Assembly (NCBI GenBank): GCA_964293155.1
Contig: CAXYYA010000028.1
Span: 1 to 48,569, forward strand
From: an uncultured Bacteroidales bacterium
Lineage (GTDB): Bacteria; Bacteroidota; Bacteroidia; Bacteroidales; Dysgonomonadaceae
DNA: 48,569 nucleotides
Direction of reading: 5' to 3'
This document shows positions 28,324-40,782 of this stretch, in pieces (positions within the stretch are counted from its first letter, which is position 1; each line of letters starts with the position of its first letter). The notes under the pieces are model-generated. The model did not search any database and was not told where the DNA came from. It was given only the letters and a program-made list of their open reading frames with translations. Both the position numbers and the translations under genes were made by a program.

Positions 28324-29696
28324 TGTAACGCGAGATTTAAAAGATGATTATTATATTTGTATGTTGTGTAATTGGTTGACGAATAGGCGTATCCTTCCCT
28401 TTGTTGCCATTGATATCCGGCCGATAACATGGTTTTTTTGATAAAATAGGAGAGGGAAGCACCCGCAAGGGCTTTAACGGGATCGTACGTGTCGTAAACT
28501 AAAAATGAGTGCCCGGTAATGTAATTTTGATGATTCCCGATGCTGAACGCCCCATCCAGCCACAGCGATTTGGCTAATTTTACACCCAAATTTTGAGAAA
28601 AAACAACTTGTGTGCCTGTCCAGGCGTTTTGGTTGTAGATGGCTGCAAGAGCGGTTGTTCCGTAAAAATCGAGGTTTCCCAGCGGATAATAAGTGAGCGA
28701 TCCTTTTGCCTGATACTGATGTCCGCCGCCGAAATTGGAATAAGCCACGGCAATTTCGGGCAAGGTGTACGCAGAGCGTTTGTTAAGAAATGCCAGCATG
28801 GAGAAAGCCGAAATCGTGTTTCCGGTTGATGCGGTGTAATATATGGAAGGATAATAAAAACCGCCTCCGCCAGGGCCCCCGCCTCCTCCACCCGGGCCGT
28901 ATCCGCCGGCACGCGTTCCCATAGTGGCAGATGCAACAGCGGTCGTAGTGTACGGGATCGCTTTATCAATCTTTTCGATGTTGTAATACGCGCCGGCAAA
29001 TCCCCAGGTAACGTTATTATCCGAGAAAAAATCAAATCCGGCGATCAATTGATGTTGAGACAATCTCTCTTCTTTTACCAATCCCGTGCTGTTTGACCGC
29101 TGAAACTTGGTGTTATACAGTTGATATCCGAGTTTTAGCTTGGCCTTGTCGGAGAGTTTAAACCCAACGCCCAGCGTAGTGAATACCATATCCTGAAACT
29201 GGTTCAGCGAATCGTAGCCCATAAAATTTGAACGCAGATCGGGTTTGTTGTCGTTCGTAAGATAACCGCCTGAGAGCGCAATAAAATCCATCGCCGAAGG
29301 CGAATATCCGATAGCGGCCTGCGTGTGTGGCGCGAGCGATTTGGCAAGTATATCGGCATTGTTTTTCTGGCCGCTCAGCAGGTAGGCGTAATACAGGCTT
29401 TCCAACAGAGCCGGCTCGGTGGAAGTTTCTGCAAGCGTTTTTTTGTAAAATTCCGCCGCTTTGGCATAATTTTTCAGTTCATAATAAGCAATAGCGGTGC
29501 GGTAATTCAGATAATAAAAATCAATGTTTTGCGCCTGCGCCTGTTTGCTGGTCTCAATCAGATTTTTATAATCCTTTTGCAGGTATTGCTGATAGGTAAT
29601 GCTGTCAATGCGGGTTGCTTCCGGGCTTTGTTGCGCCTGTAGCGCAAACGTCCACATCATCATTACCGTTGCGAATGTTATACCCATTCGATACAT
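28311..29696 (-). CDS. Outer-membrane protein with an N-terminal TPR-like region and a C-terminal beta-barrel-like domain with a Gly-rich loop
   Basis: 461 aa with a signal peptide. TPR-like helices are followed by a GGYGPGGGGGGPGGGG tract. The strand pattern alternates aromatic/hydrophobic residues and the protein ends NLALQWNF (terminal Phe). Confidence 0.5.
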   Translation of the reverse strand: MYRMGITFATVMMMWTFALQAQQSPEATRIDSITYQQYLQKDYKNLIETSKQAQAQNIDFYYLNYRTAIAYYELKNYAKAAEFYKKTLAETSTEPALLESLYYAYLLSGQKNNADILAKSLAPHTQAAIGYSPSAMDFIALSGGYLTNDNKPDLRSNFMGYDSLNQFQDMVFTTLGVGFKLSDKAKLKLGYQLYNTKFQRSNSTGLVKEERLSQHQLIAGFDFFSDNNVTWGFAGAYYNIEKIDKAIPYTTTAVASATMGTRAGGYGPGGGGGGPGGGGFYYPSIYYTASTGNTISAFSMLAFLNKRSAYTLPEIAVAYSNFGGGHQYQAKGSLTYYPLGNLDFYGTTALAAIYNQNAWTGTQVVFSQNLGVKLAKSLWLDGAFSIGNHQNYITGHSFLVYDTYDPVKALAGASLSYFIKKTMLSAGYQWQQREGYAYSSTNYTTYKYNNHLLNLALQWNF

Positions 29697-31870
29697 AAGA
29701 CATGTTTTTTAGTGTTAATTTCCATTCTGTTTTTTATTACCGTGATAGTTGATTCTTTCACCGGCATTTTTATATTGAACGACTTAGCGTCTATAATGCT
29801 TTGATATACAATTTTTTCAGGATAAAAAATATGATCCGATTCCGTTAATTGCGAACGGTAATTTATGGTTGTGAAAATAACAAAAGGCGCCAAAAAATCC
29901 TGAAACCAACGCGTTCCGAAGGGGTGTTCCTTGGTAAGCGGTATTTTATCGGTAACGGAGATCTCTTTTTCGTTGGACAGCAATAATTTAAAGCAACTAC
30001 GGTAAAACAAATACAACGGCGATGATTTTCTTCCTTCAAAATCGGTAAAATAGAACATGGTGCCATCGTTTTCCACGTACGCCACGGCTTTCGATTTTTC
30101 GCAACGGATGTAGGTTTTGTTGTATTCGTCGGTAGCAATTGTCCAGGGATAATTTTCGTTGTCGTAGGTAACTTTCAGCAACCGGCCCGGTTTGCCTTCG
30201 AAAGCATCTTGCGCCAGCAACGAAGGAACTACGTTGAAGATCGTAGTATCCTGTTTCGGAACCTCGCCGATGTGCAAGAGCGGCTTACCGGCTGTTTTTT
30301 CAAAGAAATAACCCATGGGGTACGCATGTGTTGCCGACCCGATTTCGGGCGACAACTGCACCTGAAAATGAAGGTGCGGCTCCGGCGAACGTCCCGAATT
30401 GCCGCATGCGGCAAGTACGGTTCCTTTTGTTACATAATCGCCGGTTCGCACGTTAAAACTGTCTTTTTTAAGGTGGCTTAGCTGCGAGTATAACCCGTTC
30501 AAATGATTGATAATGATCGTATTTCCCCAATTCTTTTTCGTGTTTACATCATTTATTTCATTGTCTTCGGTAATGTTGCTGATCATGTACACATAACCGT
30601 CGGCCGGAGCCAACACCGGTTTGTTGTAACAGTAAAAATCTTCTTTCTGCGCACACCGGCCGAAACACGTTTTTCCTTCTTCGTCCGTGATCATAAAATC
30701 CAACGCTTTTCCCCATGCGCCCAGGTGGGTTATTGTACCGTTGTAGCCCTGCGTTACACGCCATTCTCCCAAAAAAGGCAATTGCATTTTAAACAGCATG
30801 TTTTGTGCGAAACGCTGCATGTAATTCACGTTTTTATATACCGTTTTCTCGGGATTATAATATTGAATATACGGAAAAATAAAGAACCGGCTAAAGCTGC
30901 GTTGTTTGAGAATGAACAGTACGAGAATGGATAAAAGACTGAATGATAATGTGTAAGAAGACAGCCCGGTATCCGATATCAAACTCTCCACGCTGGCATA
31001 AAACAGAAACAGGGCGGGCGTGAGGCCAATGACCAGTATGTAGCTGTAGATGTTGGGGATGATAAAGAAGCTTCCGATTGCCATTCCCCAGAAAATGTAG
31101 TTAACGCCAGCCAGATCCTGCGTGAGTTCTGCGATATCCACGCCAAGCAATTTACTGATGATAAATGCAAAGAAAAATCCAAAAAATGCTACCGTGGATT
31201 TGATGCGTGAGTGAAAAAGCAATGCAACGGCTATGATGATGCCGACTAACACGCTGTCGGTAAAGAAAATGGATGCCAATGTTTTAAAATAATAAAACAA
31301 CATGGGCGGCAAGTGCGCATTATCGAGTGAGTGGACGAAAGTGTACCACGGTACTTTCATTTGCCCGGCCAACACGATGGTGAAACGGTCGAACGGAATA
31401 ATGTACTCAATGTTCGTGAACGATTTTACCGAAAGATCAACGATGAACAACGTGAAAACAAACGGCAGAGTAAGCACGGGAATATCGTGCTTCGCAAAAA
31501 CCGATTCGAGCCATACCGTGAACATGAATACCAGAATAACCGATAAAACAAAAAGAATAATGAACGAGCCGTTCACGTAAAATTTGTAAACCAGACTCAA
31601 CCCGACAAAAACGGCGTTAAATCCGTACAATCCGCTCTTGATCCTTTTCTTCGAAAATCCGAGCCCGTGCGCGATGATGTTCGTCAGAACCACAGCCGAA
31701 AGTCCGCCCAATCCCAGCCGGATGTCCAGCATGCTAAGCACCAGCAAGATGATCGCTAACCACCTGCTTTGCGAGAAAAATATCATGGCATAGCTGTTCA
31801 GCGTGCCATCGAGATACATCAACGCGTATGATTTGAGACTTTGTTTCATTTGTTTATGATTTCGGGACAA
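29678..31870 (-). CDS. Polytopic membrane protein (urea-transporter-like duplicated domain) fused to a C-terminal M23/LytM zinc metallopeptidase domain
   Basis: 730 aa. The first ~330 aa hold about 10 TM segments with internally repeated GLYGFNAVFVG / LAGVNYIFWG and LTLPF motifs. The M23 motifs are HLGAWGKALD ... GNSGRSPEPHLHFQV. The stop overlaps the downstream gene start by 19 nt. Confidence 0.7.
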   Translation of the reverse strand: MSRNHKQMKQSLKSYALMYLDGTLNSYAMIFFSQSRWLAIILLVLSMLDIRLGLGGLSAVVLTNIIAHGLGFSKKRIKSGLYGFNAVFVGLSLVYKFYVNGSFIILFVLSVILVFMFTVWLESVFAKHDIPVLTLPFVFTLFIVDLSVKSFTNIEYIIPFDRFTIVLAGQMKVPWYTFVHSLDNAHLPPMLFYYFKTLASIFFTDSVLVGIIIAVALLFHSRIKSTVAFFGFFFAFIISKLLGVDIAELTQDLAGVNYIFWGMAIGSFFIIPNIYSYILVIGLTPALFLFYASVESLISDTGLSSYTLSFSLLSILVLFILKQRSFSRFFIFPYIQYYNPEKTVYKNVNYMQRFAQNMLFKMQLPFLGEWRVTQGYNGTITHLGAWGKALDFMITDEEGKTCFGRCAQKEDFYCYNKPVLAPADGYVYMISNITEDNEINDVNTKKNWGNTIIINHLNGLYSQLSHLKKDSFNVRTGDYVTKGTVLAACGNSGRSPEPHLHFQVQLSPEIGSATHAYPMGYFFEKTAGKPLLHIGEVPKQDTTIFNVVPSLLAQDAFEGKPGRLLKVTYDNENYPWTIATDEYNKTYIRCEKSKAVAYVENDGTMFYFTDFEGRKSSPLYLFYRSCFKLLLSNEKEISVTDKIPLTKEHPFGTRWFQDFLAPFVIFTTINYRSQLTESDHIFYPEKIVYQSIIDAKSFNIKMPVKESTITVIKNRMEINTKKHVLCIEWV

Positions 31871-31949: not shown

Positions 31950-33305
31950 TCAAAGTTTAAACCCTTTCAGATGTTCCGGTGTAACCTCCTGTTGTACAAT
32001 GGATTCCACGGTTTCGCTTTTGCGAATAAGATGCACTTTCCCCGTGGTATCAATCATGACCACATTGGGACGTAGCGTAATGAATTGCATCCATTGTGTC
32101 ATGTTGTAAGCGCCCACTTCGTGCACCACCACGCGGTCGTCCTTTTTTAACAGCGGTAAGCTAACGCTTTCGCGCAGGCAGTCAATGTTCATGCAAAGCG
32201 GCCCGTACAGCGCCATTTCTTCGGCATGCTGTGTGAAATCCTGCGCTGGCGATACTTTGTGATTGTACCAAAACGATGTGAACATGATATTTACCCCGAT
32301 ATCGAGCACGGTAGCCCGACGGCCGTTGGCCAGGCGTTTGGTTGCAAGCACGGAACCGAGCAGATAACCCGCTTCGTCAATCAATGCGCGTCCGGTTTCG
32401 AGGATCAGCAAGGGCAATTCATCGGGTTTAAAGCCGAATTGCAAAATGGTTCCGGTGATGGCTTCGGCATAATCGTCGAACGTAGGAATAACATCAGCAC
32501 CTTGCAGATACGAACCTTTGAGTGTGTTGGACGAACAGAATCCGCCACCCATATCAATGTATTTTATCTTTACGCCGGTTTTGTTTGCCGTATTTTGCGC
32601 CAGTTCGCACAGTTTGCGCGCCGCAACGGCATAAGCGTTGGCGGTGAGCATGTAGGTGCCGATGTGGGTGTGTAATCCTTCCAACTGAAGGTTTGGCTGC
32701 GTAATGATCTTCATGATCGCATTCCACGCCTGCCCGCTTTCGTAGTTGAAGCCGAACCTGTCCCACTGCGGATAAACGCCGGTGTCCATATTTACGCGAA
32801 TGGCAACACGCGCTTTTTGTGAAGTTCCTTCCAAAATCTCGATAAGCGAATAGAGCTCGTCGAAATGATCAATGTGGATGAGCGAACGGTTTTCCACGGC
32901 TATTTTCAGGTCATCGGCCGATTTATCAGGGCCGTTGAAAATGATCAGATTGCCCGGAACGCCGTTGCGAAGGGCTTTTTGGTATTCAAAACCCGATACG
33001 ACTTCCGCCCAGCTTCCTTCCTGATGGAAAACGTTGCAAACGGCATCCAGATAGTTGGTTTTGTAGCTCCAGGCGAATTGCACTTTCGGATAGCGCATTT
33101 TAAAGGCTTTTTGTGCTTTTTGATAGGTTTGGCGGATGGTTTTTTCGCTGATTACGAAGAGCGGCGAGCCGTATTCATCCATTAACCCGGCAACTGCCAC
33201 GCCATCAATTTGTTTCACAGGTATGTATTCGGTTCTGCTGCCGAATTTATTCATCAGGTTTGTGTTCAGTTTCTGAATCACAGGACGTTCGTAGGTTGGT
33301 TTCAT
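31950..33305 (-). CDS. Fold-type III PLP-dependent decarboxylase (Orn/DAP/Arg decarboxylase family)
   Basis: 451 aa. The PLP lysine motif is AWSYKTN, the glycine motif is DMGGGF, and beta/alpha-barrel plus C-terminal beta-domain features are present. Confidence 0.8.
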   Translation of the reverse strand: MKPTYERPVIQKLNTNLMNKFGSRTEYIPVKQIDGVAVAGLMDEYGSPLFVISEKTIRQTYQKAQKAFKMRYPKVQFAWSYKTNYLDAVCNVFHQEGSWAEVVSGFEYQKALRNGVPGNLIIFNGPDKSADDLKIAVENRSLIHIDHFDELYSLIEILEGTSQKARVAIRVNMDTGVYPQWDRFGFNYESGQAWNAIMKIITQPNLQLEGLHTHIGTYMLTANAYAVAARKLCELAQNTANKTGVKIKYIDMGGGFCSSNTLKGSYLQGADVIPTFDDYAEAITGTILQFGFKPDELPLLILETGRALIDEAGYLLGSVLATKRLANGRRATVLDIGVNIMFTSFWYNHKVSPAQDFTQHAEEMALYGPLCMNIDCLRESVSLPLLKKDDRVVVHEVGAYNMTQWMQFITLRPNVVMIDTTGKVHLIRKSETVESIVQQEVTPEHLKGFKL

Positions 33306-33391: not shown

Positions 33392-34447
33392 TTATCGAGC
33401 ATATTCCCCTGTTGTGGAAATCTGCTGAAATTCCGATATATCCACGATCATATCGTACGCGTAGCGGATAAATATTTTGCCGCTTTCGTACTCCGTGAAT
33501 GGTAGTACATCCTCGCTCAACGCCATTTTCACCAAAGCTTCGGCGTGATTTTGGCCGCAGCCGATAGCAAGGTACATCCAGGCGGGAAAACGGGGATTCA
33601 TTTCCAGCAGATAATATTCGTCTTTTTTTGTTTTGATAAACTCCAGTTCGCAACCGCCTTTCCATCGGCTGTTCTCAATTACGCGACGAGAAATCTCCAT
33701 GAGTTTATCGTCTTCCAACGAAACGCCCGACCATGCTTTTCCCTTGTCCGTGATGTACAATTTTCGCATCGGCACCGCGCCGATGCATCGGCCTTTTCCG
33801 TCGCCGATGGCGGTAACGTTTACTTCCGTTCCGGTTACAAACTCCTGGACGATAATGGGATATCCCCATTTGGCGACGATTTTGTAAAAATAAGAGCTGG
33901 CCTGCTCGTAGTTCGAAGCAATGTAGGCATCGTAGTATCGCCCTTTGATCACCATGGGATAATCGAGGTCATCTTCCAGTTTTTTAATTTCCGAAACCTG
34001 ATTAATGATATGGCTTTCCGGTACTTTTATATCGTATTTTTCGCCGAATTTATTCAGTTCCGATTTGTGGCGCTCTTCAAATTGCTCATGCGATGGCAGG
34101 AAAGTGGCTATCCCAAGCTCCGATTTTAATTCGTGTTGAATTTTGATGAAATTGTGCAATTCGGCATCAAAATTCGGGATGAGCACGTCAATTTTTTCCT
34201 GGCTCACGATGTATTGCAGCCGCTCTTTGAGCATGGCTGAGCCCGCGGTGGGCAAAGGCAGCTGATAGACTTTGTCCACCAATTCGTGCATATAAATTCC
34301 CGGTTCCAGCGTTTCGTACGATAAGCCGACAATGCGCACATCGAACGCCGAACTGTCTTTCAATGCACGAATAACGGGAATTCCCGGCCCGGGGCTGTCA
34401 ATGTTGTTGAGCCCAGTGACCGCTACGGTAATTTTTCGCTTATTCAT
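33392..34447 (-). CDS. ATP-grasp family carboxylate-amine ligase
   Basis: 351 aa. The ATP-grasp core (KGRYYDAYIA, IIVQEFVTGTEVNVTAIGDG, CELEFIKTKKDEYYLLEMNPRF) is present. The start overlaps the PqqD-like gene by 8 nt. Confidence 0.75.
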   Translation of the reverse strand: MNKRKITVAVTGLNNIDSPGPGIPVIRALKDSSAFDVRIVGLSYETLEPGIYMHELVDKVYQLPLPTAGSAMLKERLQYIVSQEKIDVLIPNFDAELHNFIKIQHELKSELGIATFLPSHEQFEERHKSELNKFGEKYDIKVPESHIINQVSEIKKLEDDLDYPMVIKGRYYDAYIASNYEQASSYFYKIVAKWGYPIIVQEFVTGTEVNVTAIGDGKGRCIGAVPMRKLYITDKGKAWSGVSLEDDKLMEISRRVIENSRWKGGCELEFIKTKKDEYYLLEMNPRFPAWMYLAIGCGQNHAEALVKMALSEDVLPFTEYESGKIFIRYAYDMIVDISEFQQISTTGEYAR

Positions 34448-34685
34448 TTTCGGATAGTTGGTAGCTTTTTAACATATCCAGAAAATCGTTGAGGTCTTTC
34501 TCGGCCGTGTGGGCATCGAGTTCGTATTCATCCTGAAGTGCTTTCAAAACGGTTTCGTTACTTTCACCGTTTTTTAATTGTTGAAGAACGAAAACGCCGG
34601 TTTGGTTTACACTGAAACTGTCGCCTGTAAGTGGATTAAAGATAAATCCGTTTTCGCTGATGGCTATGTTTTTTCTAATGTTCAT
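34440..34685 (-). CDS. PqqD-family protein (RiPP recognition element-like peptide chaperone)
   Basis: 81 aa. FNPLTGDSFSVNQTGVFVLQQLKNGESNETVLKALQDEYELDAHTAEKDLNDFLDMLKSYQL matches the PqqD/RRE winged-helix pattern. Confidence 0.7.
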   Translation of the reverse strand: MNIRKNIAISENGFIFNPLTGDSFSVNQTGVFVLQQLKNGESNETVLKALQDEYELDAHTAEKDLNDFLDMLKSYQLSENE

Positions 34686-34719: not shown

Positions 34720-35328
34720 TTACGGTTGTACGATATCGGAGAACTGTGACAAATTTAATACTTTTGGTTGATAATCAATGCCTCTGCGCGATAAATTTCG
34801 TACAAACGCCCGCAAATGGTTCTCCGAAGCGCGCAAGAGGTTGGAATAAATCCGTTGGATATCGGGATTGTCGGTTTTCTGCAAGTGCGATTGCAGGTCT
34901 TCGATATCCTGTTCTTCGATCAACGCTCCGGCTTGCAGCGCCTCGATGAGCGTTGTGCCTTTGGTGAGCTCGGTGTACATTTTCTGTAACTCACGATTGG
35001 TAAACACGCCTTCCGCTTTCGCGAGGTCTTTTAACCCATACGTATCCACAAGCCACATCATGGCGTTCTGGTGCACCGTTTCGCTACGCGAAATATTTCG
35101 GAAGATAGGGATGCTATACTGCCGGGCGTAAAACGTATAAACGTCGTGGGCAAGTTTTTCTTCTTCGCGCATGTACTCAATGCTTTGGATGTCGGCCTTC
35201 GTCAGATTTTGCGTTGAAGCCGGTATTCCCATCGTCTTATTCTGTGTGGTTTTAGCCCCATCGGCAGCTTGGGGCAACAAAAGTATTGCCCCTGCCGCGA
35301 TCAGAATGAATAAATATTTTGTTTTCAT
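34720..35328 (-). CDS. Exported DUF2202-like (ferritin-like superfamily) protein, paralog 1
   Basis: 202 aa with a signal peptide. YMREEEKLAHDVY...SETVHQNAM...LRASENHLRAF is a ferritin-like four-helix pattern of E/H ligands. Confidence 0.6.
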   Translation of the reverse strand: MKTKYLFILIAAGAILLLPQAADGAKTTQNKTMGIPASTQNLTKADIQSIEYMREEEKLAHDVYTFYARQYSIPIFRNISRSETVHQNAMMWLVDTYGLKDLAKAEGVFTNRELQKMYTELTKGTTLIEALQAGALIEEQDIEDLQSHLQKTDNPDIQRIYSNLLRASENHLRAFVRNLSRRGIDYQPKVLNLSQFSDIVQP

Positions 35329-35332
35329 TTTT

Positions 35333-36025
35333 TTATGTGTTTATGATAGCGTTGAAATCATCGTTGCTCAATAATTGAGGTTGATATGCAATACCGTTGA
35401 ATTTGAGATTTGCGACAAAGGCTTTCAAATGAAACTGTGAAGCACGGAGTAGATTACCGTAAATTCTTTTGATAAACGGGTTTTCTGTTTCGGCTATTTC
35501 TCTTTGAAGATCAATAATATCGTGTTCTTCGATAAAAGCGCCGGCTTTGTAAGCATCTACAACTGTAAGGGCTTCGGTTGTAAGCTTTGTGTATAAATTT
35601 TGCAATTCTTCGATGTTAAATACCCCCGGTACCGTTTCGGCGGGAGTCTCAATTTTGTAGAGATTAATAAGCCAGGCGATAGCTTTTCCGTGTGCTATCT
35701 CGCTTTTGGAGATGTTGCTGAACACGGGTCTGGCGAATTTTTCGTTAAAATACACATACACATTATTGGCTAATTTTTCTTCTTCGCGCATGTACAGGAT
35801 GCTGTTTATTTCACTTTCGGTGAGTGGCGCGAGTTGCGTATTTGTCAACAAACAAAGCGAATCGGTGGTTGCAGCCAGTGTTGCATCAAGTCGCGTAGTT
35901 GAAACTGCGTTTATCAATGCGGCTTGTTCGGCATTTTCTTCCGGTGAATTTACGCTGTTCGCTTCACAACCGAAAAGCAAAATTGCAAGAAATGCCACGA
36001 CGGAAATTTTTTGATAAGTTTTCAT
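35333..36025 (-). CDS. Exported DUF2202-like (ferritin-like) lipoprotein, paralog 2
   Basis: 230 aa with a lipoprotein signal (LLFGCE). YMREEEKLANNVY...SEIAHGKAI...LRASQFHLKAF parallels the neighbour. It lies 4 bp upstream of paralog 1. Confidence 0.6.
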   Translation of the reverse strand: MKTYQKISVVAFLAILLFGCEANSVNSPEENAEQAALINAVSTTRLDATLAATTDSLCLLTNTQLAPLTESEINSILYMREEEKLANNVYVYFNEKFARPVFSNISKSEIAHGKAIAWLINLYKIETPAETVPGVFNIEELQNLYTKLTTEALTVVDAYKAGAFIEEHDIIDLQREIAETENPFIKRIYGNLLRASQFHLKAFVANLKFNGIAYQPQLLSNDDFNAIINT

Positions 36026-36079
36026 AATGAAAAAGTTGGTTTACTGTGATTAAGTTAATGAGATAAGCGTTTTGTAAGA

Positions 36080-36109
36080 AAAAATGGGGAGCGAATCCCC
36101 ATTTTTTTG
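36080..36109. terminator. Intrinsic terminator after the EF-hand-repeat gene
   Basis: AAAAAATGGGGA-GCGAA-TCCCCATTTTTTT. Confidence 0.6.
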
Positions 36110-36123
36110 TGGTTGGTGCGTGG

Positions 36124-36687
36124 TTATTTTGTGGTTTCCCTACGGTCGCAAATACCGTTTTTATTGGCGTCCACAAAATTTACCGCACTGCCTTTTCCAT
36201 TCCGAAGGCCGGTGCCTTTCCCTGTACCGCGTCCCTGGCGCGGTGTTCCGTTTTCGAAGTTGTCACAAATGCCGTCTTTGTCGGCATCTACGAAATTTGC
36301 TCCACCACCTCTGCCGTTACGCAGTCCGTTGCCATAGCCTTGTCCGCGTCCTCCACGGGGAGTTCCGTTTTCGAAATTGTCGCACACGCCATCTTTATCG
36401 GCATCCACAAAGAAGCGTCCTTGTCCTCTGCCGTTGCGTAATCCCTGGCCTTTGCCTTGTCCGCGGCCGCTACCGTCGAGCAGTCGTTGTTTGCCGTTGG
36501 CATTCGGATTTCCGGGTGTTCCGTTCTCGAAATTATCGCAAACGCCGTTGTTGTTTTTGTCCACAAATGCAGGTCCGGTTTGAGCGGTTTTCGCCGTTTC
36601 CTTTGCTGCCTGATTTTGATTTTGGGCGGTTGCTAATCCTATGGTGGCAACCAGCGCCATTGCAGTGATAAATACTTTTGTTTTCAT
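36124..36687 (-). CDS. Secreted protein with four canonical EF-hand calcium-binding loops separated by Gly/Arg-rich linkers
   Basis: 187 aa with a signal peptide. There are four repeats FVD(A/K)(D/N)K(D/N)G(V/I)CDNFENGTP, and each matches the EF-loop D-x-D-x-D-G-x-x-D-x-x-E and contains one Cys. The linkers are GRGQGKGQGLRNGRGQG. Confidence 0.6.
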   Translation of the reverse strand: MKTKVFITAMALVATIGLATAQNQNQAAKETAKTAQTGPAFVDKNNNGVCDNFENGTPGNPNANGKQRLLDGSGRGQGKGQGLRNGRGQGRFFVDADKDGVCDNFENGTPRGGRGQGYGNGLRNGRGGGANFVDADKDGICDNFENGTPRQGRGTGKGTGLRNGKGSAVNFVDANKNGICDRRETTK

Positions 36688-36717: not shown

Positions 36718-37293
36718 TTATCTGGTTTCGTTCCAATCGCGTCCGTAGCGATGCCGGTATCCGCGTCCCATACCGAGACTGTCGGTTCGGTTATATCCGT
36801 ATCCGTACCCGCGACGGGCATTCACCGTTTCATCGCGATACAACGGTAGGAATGCTCTTTCTAATTGAGCGCACTGCGCGTCGTTGCACGCCGATTTTAT
36901 CTTCAGGTAGAAATCGTTTGTAAGCTTTTTCAGTTCTGCGTGATGATTTCCGATGTGATCCGATAACGCATTTAATTTTGTTTCGTCGGGTTTCGGTTTG
37001 TTCAACTCCATGAACATTTCGTTTTTCAGCGAATCCATTTCGTAAATCAGCAGGTTGGCACGGGGTTGAAATTCCCGGTTCGCTGCGCGAAAAACATCCA
37101 TCTGATCATTGTCGAATCCCAGCCTTTGCCGAAAATACCTTCCGGTGAGCGGGGGCTGGCCTTCGTCAATAACAATTGCTGTGTTATCGTCTTTTTCCTG
37201 CTGATTGTGATAGACGATAGTTCCGATGGTTGTCAGGTTCAGCACCACAAGCAGTGCAATTACCCACATCATTATTTTATTCGTCTTATTCAT
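36718..37293 (-). CDS. Membrane-anchored periplasmic Spy/CpxP/ZraP-like protein (periplasmic heavy-metal sensor family)
   Basis: 191 aa. An N-terminal TM anchor is followed by a helical domain (QMDVFRAANREFQ...HHAELKKLTNDFYLKI) and a Tyr/Gly/Arg-rich tail. It overlaps the upstream gene by 8 nt. Confidence 0.5.
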   Translation of the reverse strand: MNKTNKIMMWVIALLVVLNLTTIGTIVYHNQQEKDDNTAIVIDEGQPPLTGRYFRQRLGFDNDQMDVFRAANREFQPRANLLIYEMDSLKNEMFMELNKPKPDETKLNALSDHIGNHHAELKKLTNDFYLKIKSACNDAQCAQLERAFLPLYRDETVNARRGYGYGYNRTDSLGMGRGYRHRYGRDWNETR

Positions 37294-37579: not shown

Positions 37580-37615
37580 TTTTTGTTCGTTTTATAGGTT
37601 AGACATTTGTATTGA

Positions 37616-38161
37616 TTATTTCCTACGGTCATATTCTAATTTTTTTTGCAGAGTGCTTTTTGCACGTTGTAAAAGTTGTTCCACAGCGCCTTCCGATTTT
37701 TTCATGACGGCGGCAATTTCTTTCTGCGGTAATTCTTCGTATTTACTCAGGATGAAAGCTGTTCGTTGCGAATCGGGCAGGGAATTGATGGCGTTTTTTA
37801 TCCGCTTGTCCCGTTCCGATTGTTCCAATCGTTCCAACGGCGTCTTTTCCTCACTCTGTTTGTGAAAGATGTTTTCCAACGATTCCACCACGCGGTTCTT
37901 CTTTTTTCGATTCACAAAATTGATACTCGCGTTTACGGTAATCCGGTACAGCCATGTAACAAATTGGGCTTCGCCCTTGAAATCGGGCAACGATTGATAT
38001 ATTTTAATGAAAACTTCCTGCGTGATATCTTCCGCATCTGCTTTGGAGTGCACAAAACCCAACGTCGTTCGGAACACCATACCCTGGTATTTCTCCATAA
38101 GTTCTTTAAAGACAATGGTGTTACCTGAAATTATTTCTTGTATGAGTTGCTCGTCCGACAT
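37616..38161 (-). CDS. ECF (sigma-70 family) RNA polymerase sigma factor
   Basis: 181 aa. Region 2 is DITQEVFIKIYQ and region 4 is LPQKEIAAVMKKSEGAVEQLLQRA. Confidence 0.85.
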   Translation of the reverse strand: MSDEQLIQEIISGNTIVFKELMEKYQGMVFRTTLGFVHSKADAEDITQEVFIKIYQSLPDFKGEAQFVTWLYRITVNASINFVNRKKKNRVVESLENIFHKQSEEKTPLERLEQSERDKRIKNAINSLPDSQRTAFILSKYEELPQKEIAAVMKKSEGAVEQLLQRAKSTLQKKLEYDRRK

Positions 38162-38392
38162 GTGCAGCAGTTCTTTTTCGTTTGTTTAGACAACGAAGAC
38201 CGGTTTTTCCTACGGTTGGTGATAATTTAACATTGCAATTTCGTTAAAAAATTTGGAACTAAAAAAAGTTTTTTTATTTTTGCAAAAGATAATGTTCTAT
38301 CGAACAACCGATATCATGATGTGTTAGTTTCTCTTTCGACTGCCGTCTCAGGCAGGTATTTTTTTAGCGCTACTGATTTAAACCAACCAGCT

Positions 38393-39664
38393 ATGAAAAC
38401 GAATTTTTTTATTTTTGGCATAATATCCCTTATGCTTGTATCCTGTTATCAGGAATATCCTGCACATTTTAGGCAGTATATTGATGTGAATGCTTCCATT
38501 GATGGGCTGAAAACCCGCGCCACAAATGCCTCATGGGAAGCGAATGATGCCATCGGAATTTATATGAAAATCAGTGGAGAGGGTTTGTCTGTACCAGCTT
38601 TGGCTGAAAATTCGAAATATATTACCGACGGAACGTCCGCTTTTCAGTCTGCTACGGCCGATGGAGCTATCAGCTTTCCGCTCGACGGCACTGATGTGGA
38701 TTTCATCGCGTATTATCCACATCAAACAACAATCACGGACTTAACGTATCCGGTAAATGTTTCCGATCAAAGCAGCCTGCCGGCTATTGACTTGTTGTAT
38801 TCAAACAATGCCGCGGGGCTAAATTCTCAAAATCCGGATGTTGGGCTGACTTTCGTTCACCAATTATCGAAGATAAACGTGCTAATTATGCCCGAAGATG
38901 CAACGTCTGATTTAAGCGGTTTAACCGTAACGATGACCGGTGTGGGAACCTCCGCAACATTTTCATTAGCCGACGGAACGCTTTCGGCGCCCGCTATCAC
39001 GGGTAATGTCGCATTCAATATGAGTTCCGACGGACGCACTGCTCAGGCTATTCTATTGCCGATGGCCGATTTCACGGGTAAATCGCTTATTATCGCTTTT
39101 GGATCCAATTCTTACGAATTCCCGTTGACTCAAGGGGTAAATATCACTTCTTTCGAAAAAGCAACGCAATACACGTATAACGTTACGCTTTCATCGCAAG
39201 CACTGTCGGTTTCCAACGCAACCATCACCGATTGGGTTACCGGCCCGTCGGAAAATGTGATCATCGGAAGCGTCGGAACGGCGCCTGTAACCGGCGGAAC
39301 ACTCGATGATCCGTTTACTATTGAGGAGGCAATTGCCAATCAGGGGTTGATGGATAGATGGGTAAGAGGGTTTATTGTGGGTTACTATAAAACGACTTCC
39401 TATAAATCATTTACCACAAGTGTAGATGATGTGACGAGCACCACCAACATTGCTTTAGCAACAGTTAGCACAGAGACCGATTCAACCAAAACGTTTCCTG
39501 TACAATTGTCTGCTACCCAAATCAGAGATACACTCAATCTGCTGGATCATCCTGAAAATTTGGGCAGAGAAGTTCTGGTACGAGGAGATTTGGCAACTTA
39601 TCAATACATTGCCGGAATGAAGGCGGCTGATGGAGCAGTAATTAACGGAGATACCATTCCCTAA
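38393..39664 (+). CDS. Cell-surface lipoprotein, fimbrillin-like (FimA/Mfa-type N-domain)
   Basis: Lipoprotein signal MKTNFFIFGIISLMLVSC. The Thr/Ser-rich beta architecture resembles Bacteroidales fimbrillin-family proteins. The track ORF begins at a GTG at 38321, and the Met at 38393 is preferred. Confidence 0.45.
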   Translation: MKTNFFIFGIISLMLVSCYQEYPAHFRQYIDVNASIDGLKTRATNASWEANDAIGIYMKISGEGLSVPALAENSKYITDGTSAFQSATADGAISFPLDGTDVDFIAYYPHQTTITDLTYPVNVSDQSSLPAIDLLYSNNAAGLNSQNPDVGLTFVHQLSKINVLIMPEDATSDLSGLTVTMTGVGTSATFSLADGTLSAPAITGNVAFNMSSDGRTAQAILLPMADFTGKSLIIAFGSNSYEFPLTQGVNITSFEKATQYTYNVTLSSQALSVSNATITDWVTGPSENVIIGSVGTAPVTGGTLDDPFTIEEAIANQGLMDRWVRGFIVGYYKTTSYKSFTTSVDDVTSTTNIALATVSTETDSTKTFPVQLSATQIRDTLNLLDHPENLGREVLVRGDLATYQYIAGMKAADGAVINGDTIP

Positions 39665-40782
39665 TTTACGTGATACCCCTGGCTATGCATTTCCGATGCA
39701 CGAAAGAGGGTGTATTTTTCCTCGTTTAGCGGATAATCCCAGCAACCGAGGCTGTGATAGATTTCGCCGCCGAAACCCGATTTGAATTTATACAACCCGT
39801 ACATCGGGTGTTCGGGATCGGGCGTGGGCGATATGCCGAACATATCATACTGGGTGCAGCCTGCGGCTTTCGATAGCCGGATGGCTTCCCACTGCAACGC
39901 GTATGCAGCCATCAGGTTCCGGTTTTCCGACGAAGAGGCGCCATACAAATACGAACCCCTGTTTCCCGAAATTACCAGAAACATGGCTGCGAGCGGTTTT
40001 TGGTTATATTCCGCAATCAAAAGACGCACACGCGCCGGTGAACGTGTATTATCGGCTTTTGCCGAAAGCACGGCTTCAAAGTATTTTATATCGTTTAGCA
40101 GGATACCGTTTCGTGCCGCCGTCTCTTTGTAGAGTTCATACCACGTGGAAATTTCCTCCATCCCTGCCGATTTTACGGTTGCGCCGCGACGTTGTGCCAG
40201 ACGGATGTTGTAGCGGGTTTTCGGTTTCATGCGTTGCAGGATGCTTTCTTCGTCTTGTCTTAGGTTCAGATAAACGGTACTTGCCGGAAGTATGTTGGAA
40301 AGCGCTTTTTTGAAATTCCAGTTTTCCGTATTGAAATTGAACCGGAATTCTTGTGTGCGTAATTCCGGTTCGCCTTTCCATAAGCCGTTTTCATCAAAAT
40401 TATCGGCTTCTTTTGTCCAGTATGATTCCCAACAAAGATCATAGCGAATGAGGATGCAGTTATTCGGTAAATACGGGCGAATGCTTTCCGATAATTCTTC
40501 CAGAAAAAGGCTTTGAAATTCATCGGATGGTTCCAGTTCAGGGCCGTAAGGCACATACGCCACAGAATGATTCCTGTCGATTTGTTGCAGGACGATCAGC
40601 AGGTCTGAAACCAGCAATTTATCGCTCCTGGAATGAAAAATATCCGACTCCCTCGATTTAAACCCGACAGCAAGCGTTTCGGCGCCCAGCTTGTTCTTTA
40701 CTTCCGACCAAAATGCCGTCTGTTGCAGAATGGGCGTTTTGTTCAGTTCGTCCGTGTCTTTTTTCCGAATATCTAACAGCAT
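39661..40782 (-). CDS. FemAB-family aminoacyltransferase (GNAT fold)
   Basis: 373 aa. YLYGASSSENRNLMAAYALQWEAIRLSKAAGCTQYDMFGI matches the FemAB/lipid II peptidyltransferase family core. Confidence 0.75.
   Translation of the reverse strand: MLLDIRKKDTDELNKTPILQQTAFWSEVKNKLGAETLAVGFKSRESDIFHSRSDKLLVSDLLIVLQQIDRNHSVAYVPYGPELEPSDEFQSLFLEELSESIRPYLPNNCILIRYDLCWESYWTKEADNFDENGLWKGEPELRTQEFRFNFNTENWNFKKALSNILPASTVYLNLRQDEESILQRMKPKTRYNIRLAQRRGATVKSAGMEEISTWYELYKETAARNGILLNDIKYFEAVLSAKADNTRSPARVRLLIAEYNQKPLAAMFLVISGNRGSYLYGASSSENRNLMAAYALQWEAIRLSKAAGCTQYDMFGISPTPDPEHPMYGLYKFKSGFGGEIYHSLGCWDYPLNEEKYTLFRASEMHSQGYHVN

Follow-up and report, generated by a model that had tools for sequence, protein, structure and literature searches.

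A four-loop, cysteine-bearing repeat protein encoded in an extracytoplasmic function sigma factor operon of a Bacteroidales bacterium: a candidate metal-binding protein of the cell envelope

SilE and PcoE are periplasmic 'metal sponge' proteins in silver and copper resistance; they are small, exported and disordered, carry repeated short metal-binding motifs, are induced by metal and are encoded beside metal exporters. Another described system is the extracytoplasmic function (ECF) sigma factor module of groups ECF281 and ECF290, in which an anti-sigma gene at position +1 and a PF13801 gene at position +2 follow the sigma gene, and which is related to heavy-metal stress (Casas-Pastor et al. 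2021, PMC7826278). A third is the class of Dx[DN]xDG loops, which bind Ca2+ alike in at least 16 unrelated folds, always have a further acidic ligand later in the sequence and are stated to be absent from intrinsically disordered regions (Rigden, Woodhead, Wong and Galperin 2011, PMC3123361). Here we compare these systems with a gene in a 48,569-nucleotide stretch of DNA (hereafter the window) from an uncultured Bacteroidales bacterium of the Dysgonomonadaceae (GenBank assembly GCA_964293155.1, contig CAXYYA010000028.1). The gene, at positions 36124..36687, lies in an ECF sigma operon and encodes an exported repeat protein with four Cys-containing loops of the D-x-[DN]-x-[DN]-G type. We propose, with moderate confidence, that this protein is a disordered metal-binding 'sponge' of the cell envelope and the output of an ECF module that responds to metal or envelope stress. 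In size, export, disorder and repeated short motifs it resembles SilE and PcoE, whereas their motifs are built from His and Met, they are under two-component control and they have no sequence similarity to the repeat protein.

The open reading frame (ORF) of the repeat gene starts with ATG and, judging by its 678 homologs at E<=1e-3, is a real gene. Its product runs from MKTK through a hydrophobic stretch to A-T-A, after which cleavage would leave QNQ at the mature N-terminus; this layout, of the Sec type, was read by inspection, and the N-terminus is conserved in the homologs. Substrates of signal peptidase I in Bacteroidota often have a Gln immediately behind the cleavage site. The secretion predicted by the initial annotation of the window, which a model had made from the letters alone, is thus borne out. 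The mature protein has 166 residues (22% Gly, 13% Asn), an isoelectric point of 9.5 and a net charge of about +7. Each of its four D-x-[DN]-x-[DN]-G-[VI]-C-D-x-x-E copies is preceded by F-V and contains one Cys, and the linkers between them are rich in Gly, Arg and Asn, which agrees with the earlier description of four cation-loop motifs with a Cys each and of Gly/Arg linkers in the places of flanking helices. A six-frame translation of the whole window contains four copies of the core D.[DN].[DN]G.CD, every one inside the repeat ORF, and the core was not seen in any of 200 shuffles. The repeating unit is about 39 residues long and consists of a loop followed by a conserved linker (...G-L-R-N-G-[KR]-G...). 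Tandem Repeats Finder detected a duplication with a period of 117, 1.9 copies and a match of 78%; at this level of match the duplication is not recent. The corresponding 39-residue block has no counterpart in the closest homologs, and the window protein is the sole four-motif protein among the 120 best homologs.

The operon in which the repeat gene lies begins with a putative ECF-type promoter, P1 (GTAGGAAA-N14-TGTCTAA), and continues with genes for an ECF sigma factor, a putative anti-sigma factor and a Metal_resist (PF13801) protein with an LTxxQ motif, before it reaches the repeat gene (Table 1). The sigma factor is well defined (Sigma70_r2 and Sigma70_r4_2, E about 1e-16; NCBIfam sigma70-ECF, 120 bits vs a cut-off of 42.9). 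The anti-sigma candidate has one transmembrane (TM) helix by inspection and a weak match to the NCBIfam 'anti-sigma' model (E 1.6e-4, below cut-off); it has no Pfam match to zf-HC2, of which the orthologue in L096 has a weak one, and it is kept at the same position in six related loci (L004, L009, L010, L045, L094, L096). The Metal_resist protein scores 30.4 bits vs a cut-off of 29.2 and ends in a Gly/Arg/Tyr/His tail; its gene overlaps the anti-sigma gene by 8 nt and is separated from the repeat gene by 30 nt. P1 is found with the same spacing before the operon in L009, L010, L094, L130 and L173, and in related versions in 9 further loci. A second element, P2, stands at the sigma/anti-sigma junction and at the same place in these five loci, where the spacers have diverged. 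The window contains two matches to the promoter element, where 0.25 would be expected, and both are in the sigma operon. From this conservation we infer two ECF-type promoters, of which one would be autoregulatory and the other would boost the downstream genes. Seventeen nucleotides past the stop codon of the repeat gene starts a hairpin, AAAAAAAUGGGGA-UUCGC-UCCCCAUUUUUU, with a folding energy of -15.4 kcal/mol (z -4.9) that none of 200 shuffles equalled; a simple terminator consensus scan did not list it, and folding shows it clearly. The clean terminator that the initial annotation had described is therefore present, and its placement of the gene within the ECF-sigma transcript is supported by the tight spacing and by the two conserved promoter elements. 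These results support the repeat gene as the last cistron of an autoregulated operon of sigma, anti-sigma, LTxxQ protein and repeat gene.

The association with sigma factors extends across the family. An ECF sigma or anti-sigma gene is adjacent to the motif gene, on the same strand, in 30 of 64 non-redundant metagenome loci of the family; among loci flanked by 1.5 kb or more on each side the count is 19 of 31, and two phyla are represented. Three gene orders recur: motif, sigma and an RsgI_M-type anti-sigma in the Firmicutes type; motif, sigma, anti-sigma and Metal_resist in Bacteroidota; and sigma, anti-sigma, Metal_resist and motif, often with a DUF2202 gene next, in Bacteroidota as in the window. 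The four-gene module is found in distant Bacteroidales (the P0091 loci L004-L008; L009, L010, L045, L094 and L096). With the ECF281 and ECF290 modules the operon shares the sigma factor, the anti-sigma at +1 and PF13801 at +2, a likeness of gene order; like these and the CnrYXH-type modules it encodes a small putative anti-sigma with a single TM pass and a PF13801 protein that is periplasmic and anchored in the membrane, and the Gly-rich C-terminal tail of the latter recalls ZraP. In contrast to the described heavy-metal ECF modules, it has no efflux pump, and its cargo is the repeat protein, which lies outside those modules. Elsewhere in the family the neighbours handle metals: a P1B ATPase gene lies directly upstream of the family member in L095, L122, L123 and L171 and 1.4 kb downstream in L106, and a ZIP transporter gene adjoins P0215. 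The ATPase of L095 carries the signatures CPC, YN and MxxSS, which we take to be those of a Cu(I) ATPase of the CopA type. The neighbours speak for transition-metal or envelope stress rather than for calcium physiology. Many family proteins end in His/Cys/Gly/Arg-rich tails (for instance GQGHGHGRHHGGGHGCAR and CCGRGNGHQHRHGQ).

Similar low-complexity, extracytoplasmic ends were seen on all partners of the system. RsgI_M-type anti-sigmas carry tails rich in Gly, His, Arg and Gln (e.g. ...GHGHGQGAGKGYGHGRHGN; L105, L112, L114, L118, L120, L132, L155, L157, L168, L176), as do the Metal_resist proteins of 16 loci (...GRGYRHRYGR), some DUF2202 proteins and many motif proteins; P0327, P0329 and P0336 are among the proteins listed with them.

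The initial annotation had called the loops canonical EF-hands. All four satisfy positions 1-12 of PROSITE PS00018, so the 12-residue loop pattern survives realignment, with D1, [DN]3, [DN]5, G6, an acidic residue at 9 and E12, several times per protein as in a canonical EF-hand (PF00036, PS00018). None of the four, however, matches PS00018 in full, as position 13 must be hydrophobic and is here N, N, N and T. The proposed profile searches likewise gave no match at cut-off: the window protein reaches 10.8 bits vs 25.4 with Pfam EF-hand_1 (E 0.4), its relatives reach at most 14.9 bits, and Excalibur, TSP3, EF-hand_5 and dockerin have no Pfam match in the window protein at E<=1. No curated family in Pfam or NCBIfam exceeded its cut-off on the repeats, and a PDB sequence search with the repeat protein returned chance matches only (E>=0.2). 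The relatives have sub-threshold Pfam matches to EF-hand_1, EF-hand_5, Excalibur, TSP3_bac and FG-GAP_3, limited to the 8-11 residues of the loop core. Structure prediction with AlphaFold2 gave low-confidence models, built without ions, with a mean predicted local distance difference test score (pLDDT) of 41 for the window protein (34 homologs) and of 54 for a Firmicutes relative (116 homologs). Flanking helices are absent from the former model, in which DSSP assigned a turn of 4-5 residues after two of the four loops, and helix-loop-helix was likewise not seen in the latter; the sole recurrent feature of both runs is a beta-bridge that closes each loop between positions 0 (before D1) and 7. 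On the strength of the profile, position 13 and modelling results, the window protein is not a canonical helix-loop-helix EF-hand and instead matches the generic Dx[DN]xDG calcium-loop class. It differs from the EF-hand in that entering and exiting helices are lacking and disorder is predicted for the Gly/Arg/Asn-rich flanks, in that position 8 is Cys in almost every copy, and in that most of the wider family no longer has E12. What remains is a Sec-exported, basic, periplasmic protein that is largely disordered.

Conservation narrows the unit further. Gly-6 is present in 94% of 272 copies from the 120 closest homologs and in 100% of 206 copies from the 64 metagenome loci, and position 7 is I or V in the close homologs and V or I in the wider family. 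Glu-12 is found in 85% of the copies from close Bacteroidales vs 9% of those from the wider family, where Gly is commonest (44%). D1, Cys-8, Asp-9 and [DN] at 3 and 5 look invariant, but the search patterns required them; Asn replaces Cys-8 in some copies (L172). A C-D-x-C context, which was counted in the wider family and not in the close homologs, accounts for 17% of the 206 copies. Judged from these alignments, the conserved unit is a 9-residue Dx[DN]x[DN]G-[VI]-C-D loop, shorter than an EF loop. Asp-1, [DN] at 3 and 5, Gly-6 and a later acidic residue are those of the Dx[DN]xDG class (PMC3123361), in which Asp-9 would be the further acidic ligand, and the predicted beta-bridge closes the loop as in members of the class such as the beta-hairpin loops of integrin/FG-GAP; unlike that class, the loops here lie within low-complexity linkers, and Cys-8 beside D9 is outside its definition. 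The closest tandem, helix-free versions are TSP3 (PF02412, PF18884) and Excalibur (PF05901, DxDxDGxxCE), which also consist of Cys-containing DxDxDG-type loops in extracellular proteins. Some family members (L104, L129, L131, L161) combine the motif with TSP3-like DGDGIPNGQDDDY units. Neither model reaches its cut-off: TSP3_bac scores 13.9 bits vs 25 in P0121 and has no match in the window protein, and the best relative scores 16.9 bits vs 22 with Excalibur. The Cys register is C8-D9 here vs C9-E10 in the Excalibur domain of about 37 residues, and the family lacks the fixed disulfide ladder of TSP3, with one Cys per unit and odd totals common.

These observations bear on a straightforward alternative, namely that the protein is a dedicated Ca2+-binding protein whose helix-free, EF-hand-like sites serve a structural, buffering or cell-surface role, as in TSP3, Excalibur and dockerin, with the Cys residues structural or in disulfides. 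We regard this as unlikely. It would account for the fit of all four loops to EF-loop positions 1-12, for the exclusively Ca2+-related, if sub-threshold, Pfam similarities, for the members with TSP3-like units or with Asn in place of Cys, and for the behaviour of Dx[DN]xDG loops in other folds (PMC3123361). It is opposed by the failure of every curated Ca2+-family model to reach cut-off, by the loss of Glu-12 across the family, by a near-universal Cys-8 that a pure Ca2+ site does not explain, by the His/Cys-rich tails of the relatives and by neighbours concerned with heavy- or transition-metal handling and ECF stress signalling. Odd Cys counts also speak against fixed disulfide pairs: 31 homologs combine three motifs with exactly three Cys, and a fixed intramolecular pattern is for that reason ruled out as a family feature. 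Of the two fates suggested earlier for the four Cys residues, obligatory disulfide pairing is for this reason unlikely, whereas the binding of a softer metal fits the genomic context best.

We return to the metal sponge. In the mechanism that we infer, the repeat protein would be the effector of an envelope or metal-stress response, acting as a multivalent metal-ion buffer and possibly as a chaperone-like carrier. The Asp and Asn side chains at positions 1, 3, 5 and 9, together with the carbonyl of position 7, would form an oxygen-rich site as in other Dx[DN]xDG loops, and the thiolate of Cys-8 would take a softer ion (Zn, Cu, Fe, Cd or Ni), either alone or between paired loops. The repeat protein probably acts with the LTxxQ protein and with the adjacent exported ferritin-like DUF2202 proteins.

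Several points weigh against this proposal. In an EF-type loop the side chain of position 8 points away from the ion, and loop chemistry alone favours a hard ion, Ca2+, whereas the genomic context and the tails speak for a transition metal. The window protein itself lacks a His-rich tail and contains no more than four Cys, and about 40% of the well-flanked family loci have no sigma factor nearby. We found no description of the family in the literature searched. A scan of the window found no ECF-type promoter before the DUF2202 genes, and co-regulation with them does not follow, since the terminator separates them from the repeat gene. Finally, 16 aligned homologs of the Metal_resist partner have a TM helix at the N-terminus, the motif L-x-L-x3-Q, one conserved Cys and a G/R tail that ends in ...RHRYGR, but no conserved His positions. 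The CnrX sensor, in contrast, has a set of His metal ligands, and a CnrX-like metal sensor is accordingly not supported. The partner looks more like a chaperone or modulator of the Spy/CpxP/ZraP type, so that the stimulus could be general envelope stress.

The nature of this partner also leaves room for a regulatory role of the repeat protein as client or ligand. Members of the Spy/CpxP/ZraP superfamily bind unfolded clients or modulate sensors, and the repeat protein could be a third regulatory component, a ligand or co-sensor in the periplasm that would control the anti-sigma, for example by titrating the LTxxQ protein or the Gly/His tail of the anti-sigma itself upon metal-induced folding or oxidation, in a manner resembling client titration of CpxP. 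The co-operonic arrangement with sigma and anti-sigma genes in two phyla, where the motif gene is in many loci the first of a minimal operon of three genes (motif, sigma, anti-sigma), would suit such a role, as would the superfamily of the LTxxQ partner and the similar low-complexity tails of the anti-sigma, Metal_resist and motif proteins. Family members also occur without any sigma factor, however, beside a CopA-type ATPase, a ZIP transporter or DUF2202 alone, and a repeat number of 1 to 9, together with the duplication in the window, fits a dosage-type binder better; we therefore consider a regulatory component decidedly unlikely.

Table 1. Features of the repeat gene, its operon and the genes downstream, with window coordinates
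Feature	Position	Strand	Basis
ECF-type promoter-like element P1, GGAAA-N14-GTCTAA, upstream of sigma gene	38186..38210	-	motif scan
ECF sigma factor, 181 aa	37616..38161	-	Pfam Sigma70_r2, Sigma70_r4_2
Second ECF-type promoter-like element P2, sigma/anti-sigma junction	37599..37623	-	motif scan
Putative small single-pass anti-sigma factor, 97 aa	37286..37579	-	position +1 after sigma
Membrane-anchored periplasmic LTxxQ / 'heavy-metal resistance' protein (Spy/CpxP/ZraP/CnrX superfamily)	36718..37293	-	Pfam Metal_resist PF13801
Repeat gene, 187 aa, four Dx[DN]x[DN]G-[VI]-C-D-x-x-E loops, exported	36124..36687	-	ORF list and motif match
Signal peptide, aa 1-21, MKTKVFITAMALVATIGLATA then Q	36625..36687	-	by inspection; conserved in homologs
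Loop 1, aa 43-54, DKNNNGVCDNFE	36526..36561	-	motif match
Loop 2, aa 95-106, DADKDGVCDNFE	36370..36405	-	motif match
Loop 3, aa 134-145, DADKDGICDNFE	36253..36288	-	motif match
Loop 4, aa 173-184, DANKNGICDRRE, C-terminal	36136..36171	-	motif match
Tandem duplication of 117 bp (39 aa), origin of the extra, fourth motif	36245..36465	.	Tandem Repeats Finder
Intrinsic-terminator-like hairpin, A-tract / GC stem / U-tract	36079..36107	-	folding
Exported ferritin-like DUF2202 protein, lipobox LFGC, MJ0754 homolog	35333..36025	-	Pfam DUF2202 E 1.4e-38
Second exported ferritin-like DUF2202 protein	34720..35328	-	Pfam DUF2202 E 4.7e-43, Rubrerythrin E 4.7e-6
PqqD-family peptide chaperone	34440-34685	-	follows DUF2202 genes
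ATP-grasp ligase	33392-34447	-	after PqqD
Ornithine/diaminopimelate (Orn/DAP)-type pyridoxal phosphate (PLP) decarboxylase	31950-33305	-	after ATP-grasp

The family is large and widely spread. A profile search of 1.84 billion representatives returned 1,561 clusters at 50% identity, with E<=1e-10 for 339, and the best 150 matches listed are 91-319 residues long. Bacteroidota, Firmicutes and archaea all encode members, which are small and exported. Close homologs belong to Petrimonas, Proteiniphilum, Fermentimonas and other Bacteroidales, and each combines a signal peptide with 2-4 motifs and conserved linker elements of the kind described above. A motif-only profile (the synthetic triple-motif alignment A3, with matches restricted to short proteins) and the metagenome scan extend the family to Firmicutes (Ruminococcus, Anaerotruncus), human-gut contigs and other lineages. 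With one to nine motifs per protein across the family, the repeat number is clearly evolvable. The habitats, judged from taxa and sample names, are mostly anaerobic (gut, digester, sediment). Many homologs carry the precomputed Pfam label PF27309 'MJ0753_N', to which the window protein has 'faint' precomputed matches only. Residues 26-54 of Methanocaldococcus jannaschii MJ0753, which follow a signal/TM segment, contain [FY]-[VI]-D-x-N-x-N-G-I-C-D-x-x-E; with this element at the N-terminus of MJ0753, the motif is the core of PF27309. MJ0753 has three extra upstream Cys that are absent from the window protein, which has the element four times. The homologs P0083 and P0091 were named DUF6520 by their sources, and DUF6520 (PF20130) scores 20.9 bits vs a cut-off of 25.4 on the window protein, over residues 1-35 only, i.e. 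the signal peptide. The array that the initial annotation saw as unusual and minimalist is not a one-off oddity, since its motif is the core of a Pfam family and some members are annotated as DUF6520. In the literature searched we found no mention of DUF6520, MJ0753, DUF7155 or PF27309, and passing mentions only of DUF2202 and MJ0754.

Two DUF2202 genes follow the terminator in the window. Their products match PDB 3Q4O (MJ0754) with E 5e-31 for the first and E 8.7e-35 for the second, which has a signal-peptidase-I site. Structures have been solved (3Q4N, 3Q4O, 3Q4Q and 3Q4R) for MJ0754, a four-helix protein of the ferritin-like kind, and in M. jannaschii the motif protein gene MJ0753 lies 6 bp after that of MJ0754, so that the motif gene adjoins a DUF2202 gene as in the window. 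A preprint on ferrosomes lists a DUF2202 ferritin-like protein among the conserved genes of iron-storage clusters. Among 80 DUF2202 loci from many phyla, 8 encode a protein with the motif no more than 5 kb away; seven of these proteins are small and exported (Bacteroidales, Rikenellaceae, Chitinophagaceae, Ignavibacteriaceae), the eighth is that of Oscillochloris (L046), and in five of these loci the motif gene is directly upstream of DUF2202 on the same strand. Where the order is sigma, anti-sigma, Metal_resist and motif, DUF2202 comes next in 7 of 10 loci (the window, L009, L010, L045, L094, L130 and L169; not L004, L096 or L173). With DUF2202 genes directly next to family members in M. jannaschii and in Bacteroidales, Rikenellaceae, Chitinophagaceae and Ignavibacteriaceae, the pairing is old and recurrent. 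The Oscillochloris protein (Candidatus Oscillochloris fontis, L046:782-1762, - strand) is a 327-residue membrane protein about 3 kb from the DUF2202 gene; it ends in CRTCRRRKHCAYPGDCRDYVDTNGNGRCDLGECG, a Cys-rich version of the element like the N-terminus of MJ0753, so that membrane proteins, too, can carry the motif element as a fusion. A 60-residue ORF directly before MJ0754 (L178:3807-3989) has a lipoprotein signal and a Q/N/G-rich stretch. It was considered as a further motif protein and rejected, as it looks like the detached lipoprotein N-terminus of longer DUF2202 homologs; in other Methanocaldococcus species these are 232-257 residues long, and MJ0754 may be split or mis-started in the M. 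jannaschii assembly.

A broader interpretation, which seems doubtful to us at present, is that proteins with [FY]-[VI]-D-x-[DN]-x-[DN]-G-[VI]-C-D form an unrecognised class of disordered, metal-responsive extracytoplasmic proteins that crosses phyla and includes archaea, and that they are an integral third or fourth component of an ECF switch. The LTxxQ protein or the Gly/His tail on the anti-sigma would then serve to sense metal- or redox-dependent folding or pairing of the loops, and metal would be handed to or received from the exported DUF2202 protein, a partnership kept from Methanocaldococcus to Bacteroidales. The Dx[DN]xDG class and its helix-free tandem versions, TSP3 and Excalibur, have been described before, and the family already has an entry as a domain of unknown function; the Cys-bearing loop within disordered linkers, the cross-phylum coupling to ECF sigma/anti-sigma pairs and the archaea-to-bacteria pairing with DUF2202 appear to be undescribed. 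The linkage to ECF and metal genes suggests a dedicated output or co-sensor of a widespread, unstudied envelope stress circuit in Bacteroidota and Firmicutes, and DUF2202/MJ0754, whose structure is solved, would gain a functional partner in the repeat protein. If the loops bind metal inside disordered linkers, the Dx[DN]xDG motif would extend to a disordered context from which, according to its surveyors (PMC3123361), it was not known. The repeat protein is a good and cheap experimental target and not a categorically new system.

Genes of sulfur and redox metabolism occur near some family members. Within a few kb upstream of the module, L004-L008 encode a thioredoxin, a MarR regulator and a coenzyme A (CoA)-disulfide-reductase-like protein (rhodanese/DsrE/TusA), and a TusA/DsrE gene (L178:1-286) is near MJ0754/MJ0753; these neighbours may lie there by chance or point to a link with thiol or sulfide chemistry. 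They would be expected if the protein served in thiol-based redox or sulfide stress, with exposed Cys residues that are sacrificial or exchangeable in an anaerobe's envelope (against oxygen, hypochlorous acid or polysulfide) and loops that merely position them, and the almost constant presence of Cys, the thioredoxin, CoA-disulfide-reductase-like and thioredoxin-reductase-like genes near some members (L004-L008, L095), the archaeal TusA/DsrE gene and the mostly anaerobic habitats are all compatible with such a function. We nevertheless judge it very improbable, as the redox genes are neither adjacent nor consistently present, and the strict Asp/Asn/Gly loop around the Cys, the His-rich tails and the ATPase and ZIP contexts would be left unexplained.

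The genes beyond DUF2202 raise one further possibility. A PqqD gene, with ATP-grasp where the contig reaches, stands beside the sigma/motif module in L009, L049, L130 and L173 as well, in a different order in L049. As PqqD has a peptide-binding chaperone fold, the repeat protein might be a substrate of these enzymes, that is, a peptide like the ribosomally synthesised and post-translationally modified peptides (RiPPs) or a post-translationally ligated repeat peptide. This is extremely improbable. The protein has a classical Sec signal peptide and no RiPP leader, and most family loci, including all those of the Firmicutes type, lack PqqD and ATP-grasp, for which reasons a RiPP precursor was set aside; moreover, the terminator and two DUF2202 genes lie in between, and the PLP decarboxylase alongside fits small-molecule synthesis better. 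That decarboxylase scores 223 bits with lysA and 218 bits with the rhizoferrin decarboxylase FslC, both below cut-off, and the PqqD, ATP-grasp and decarboxylase genes could form a metallophore or peptide-modification pathway tied to the module. By their Pfam names, the flanking genes encode a divergently transcribed Mfa-like fimbrial/DUF6359 protein (38321-39664, + strand), a FemAB-family aminoacyl-transferase-like protein (39661-40782, - strand) and, beyond the decarboxylase, a large urea-transporter-like/M23 peptidase fusion protein (29678-31870, - strand).

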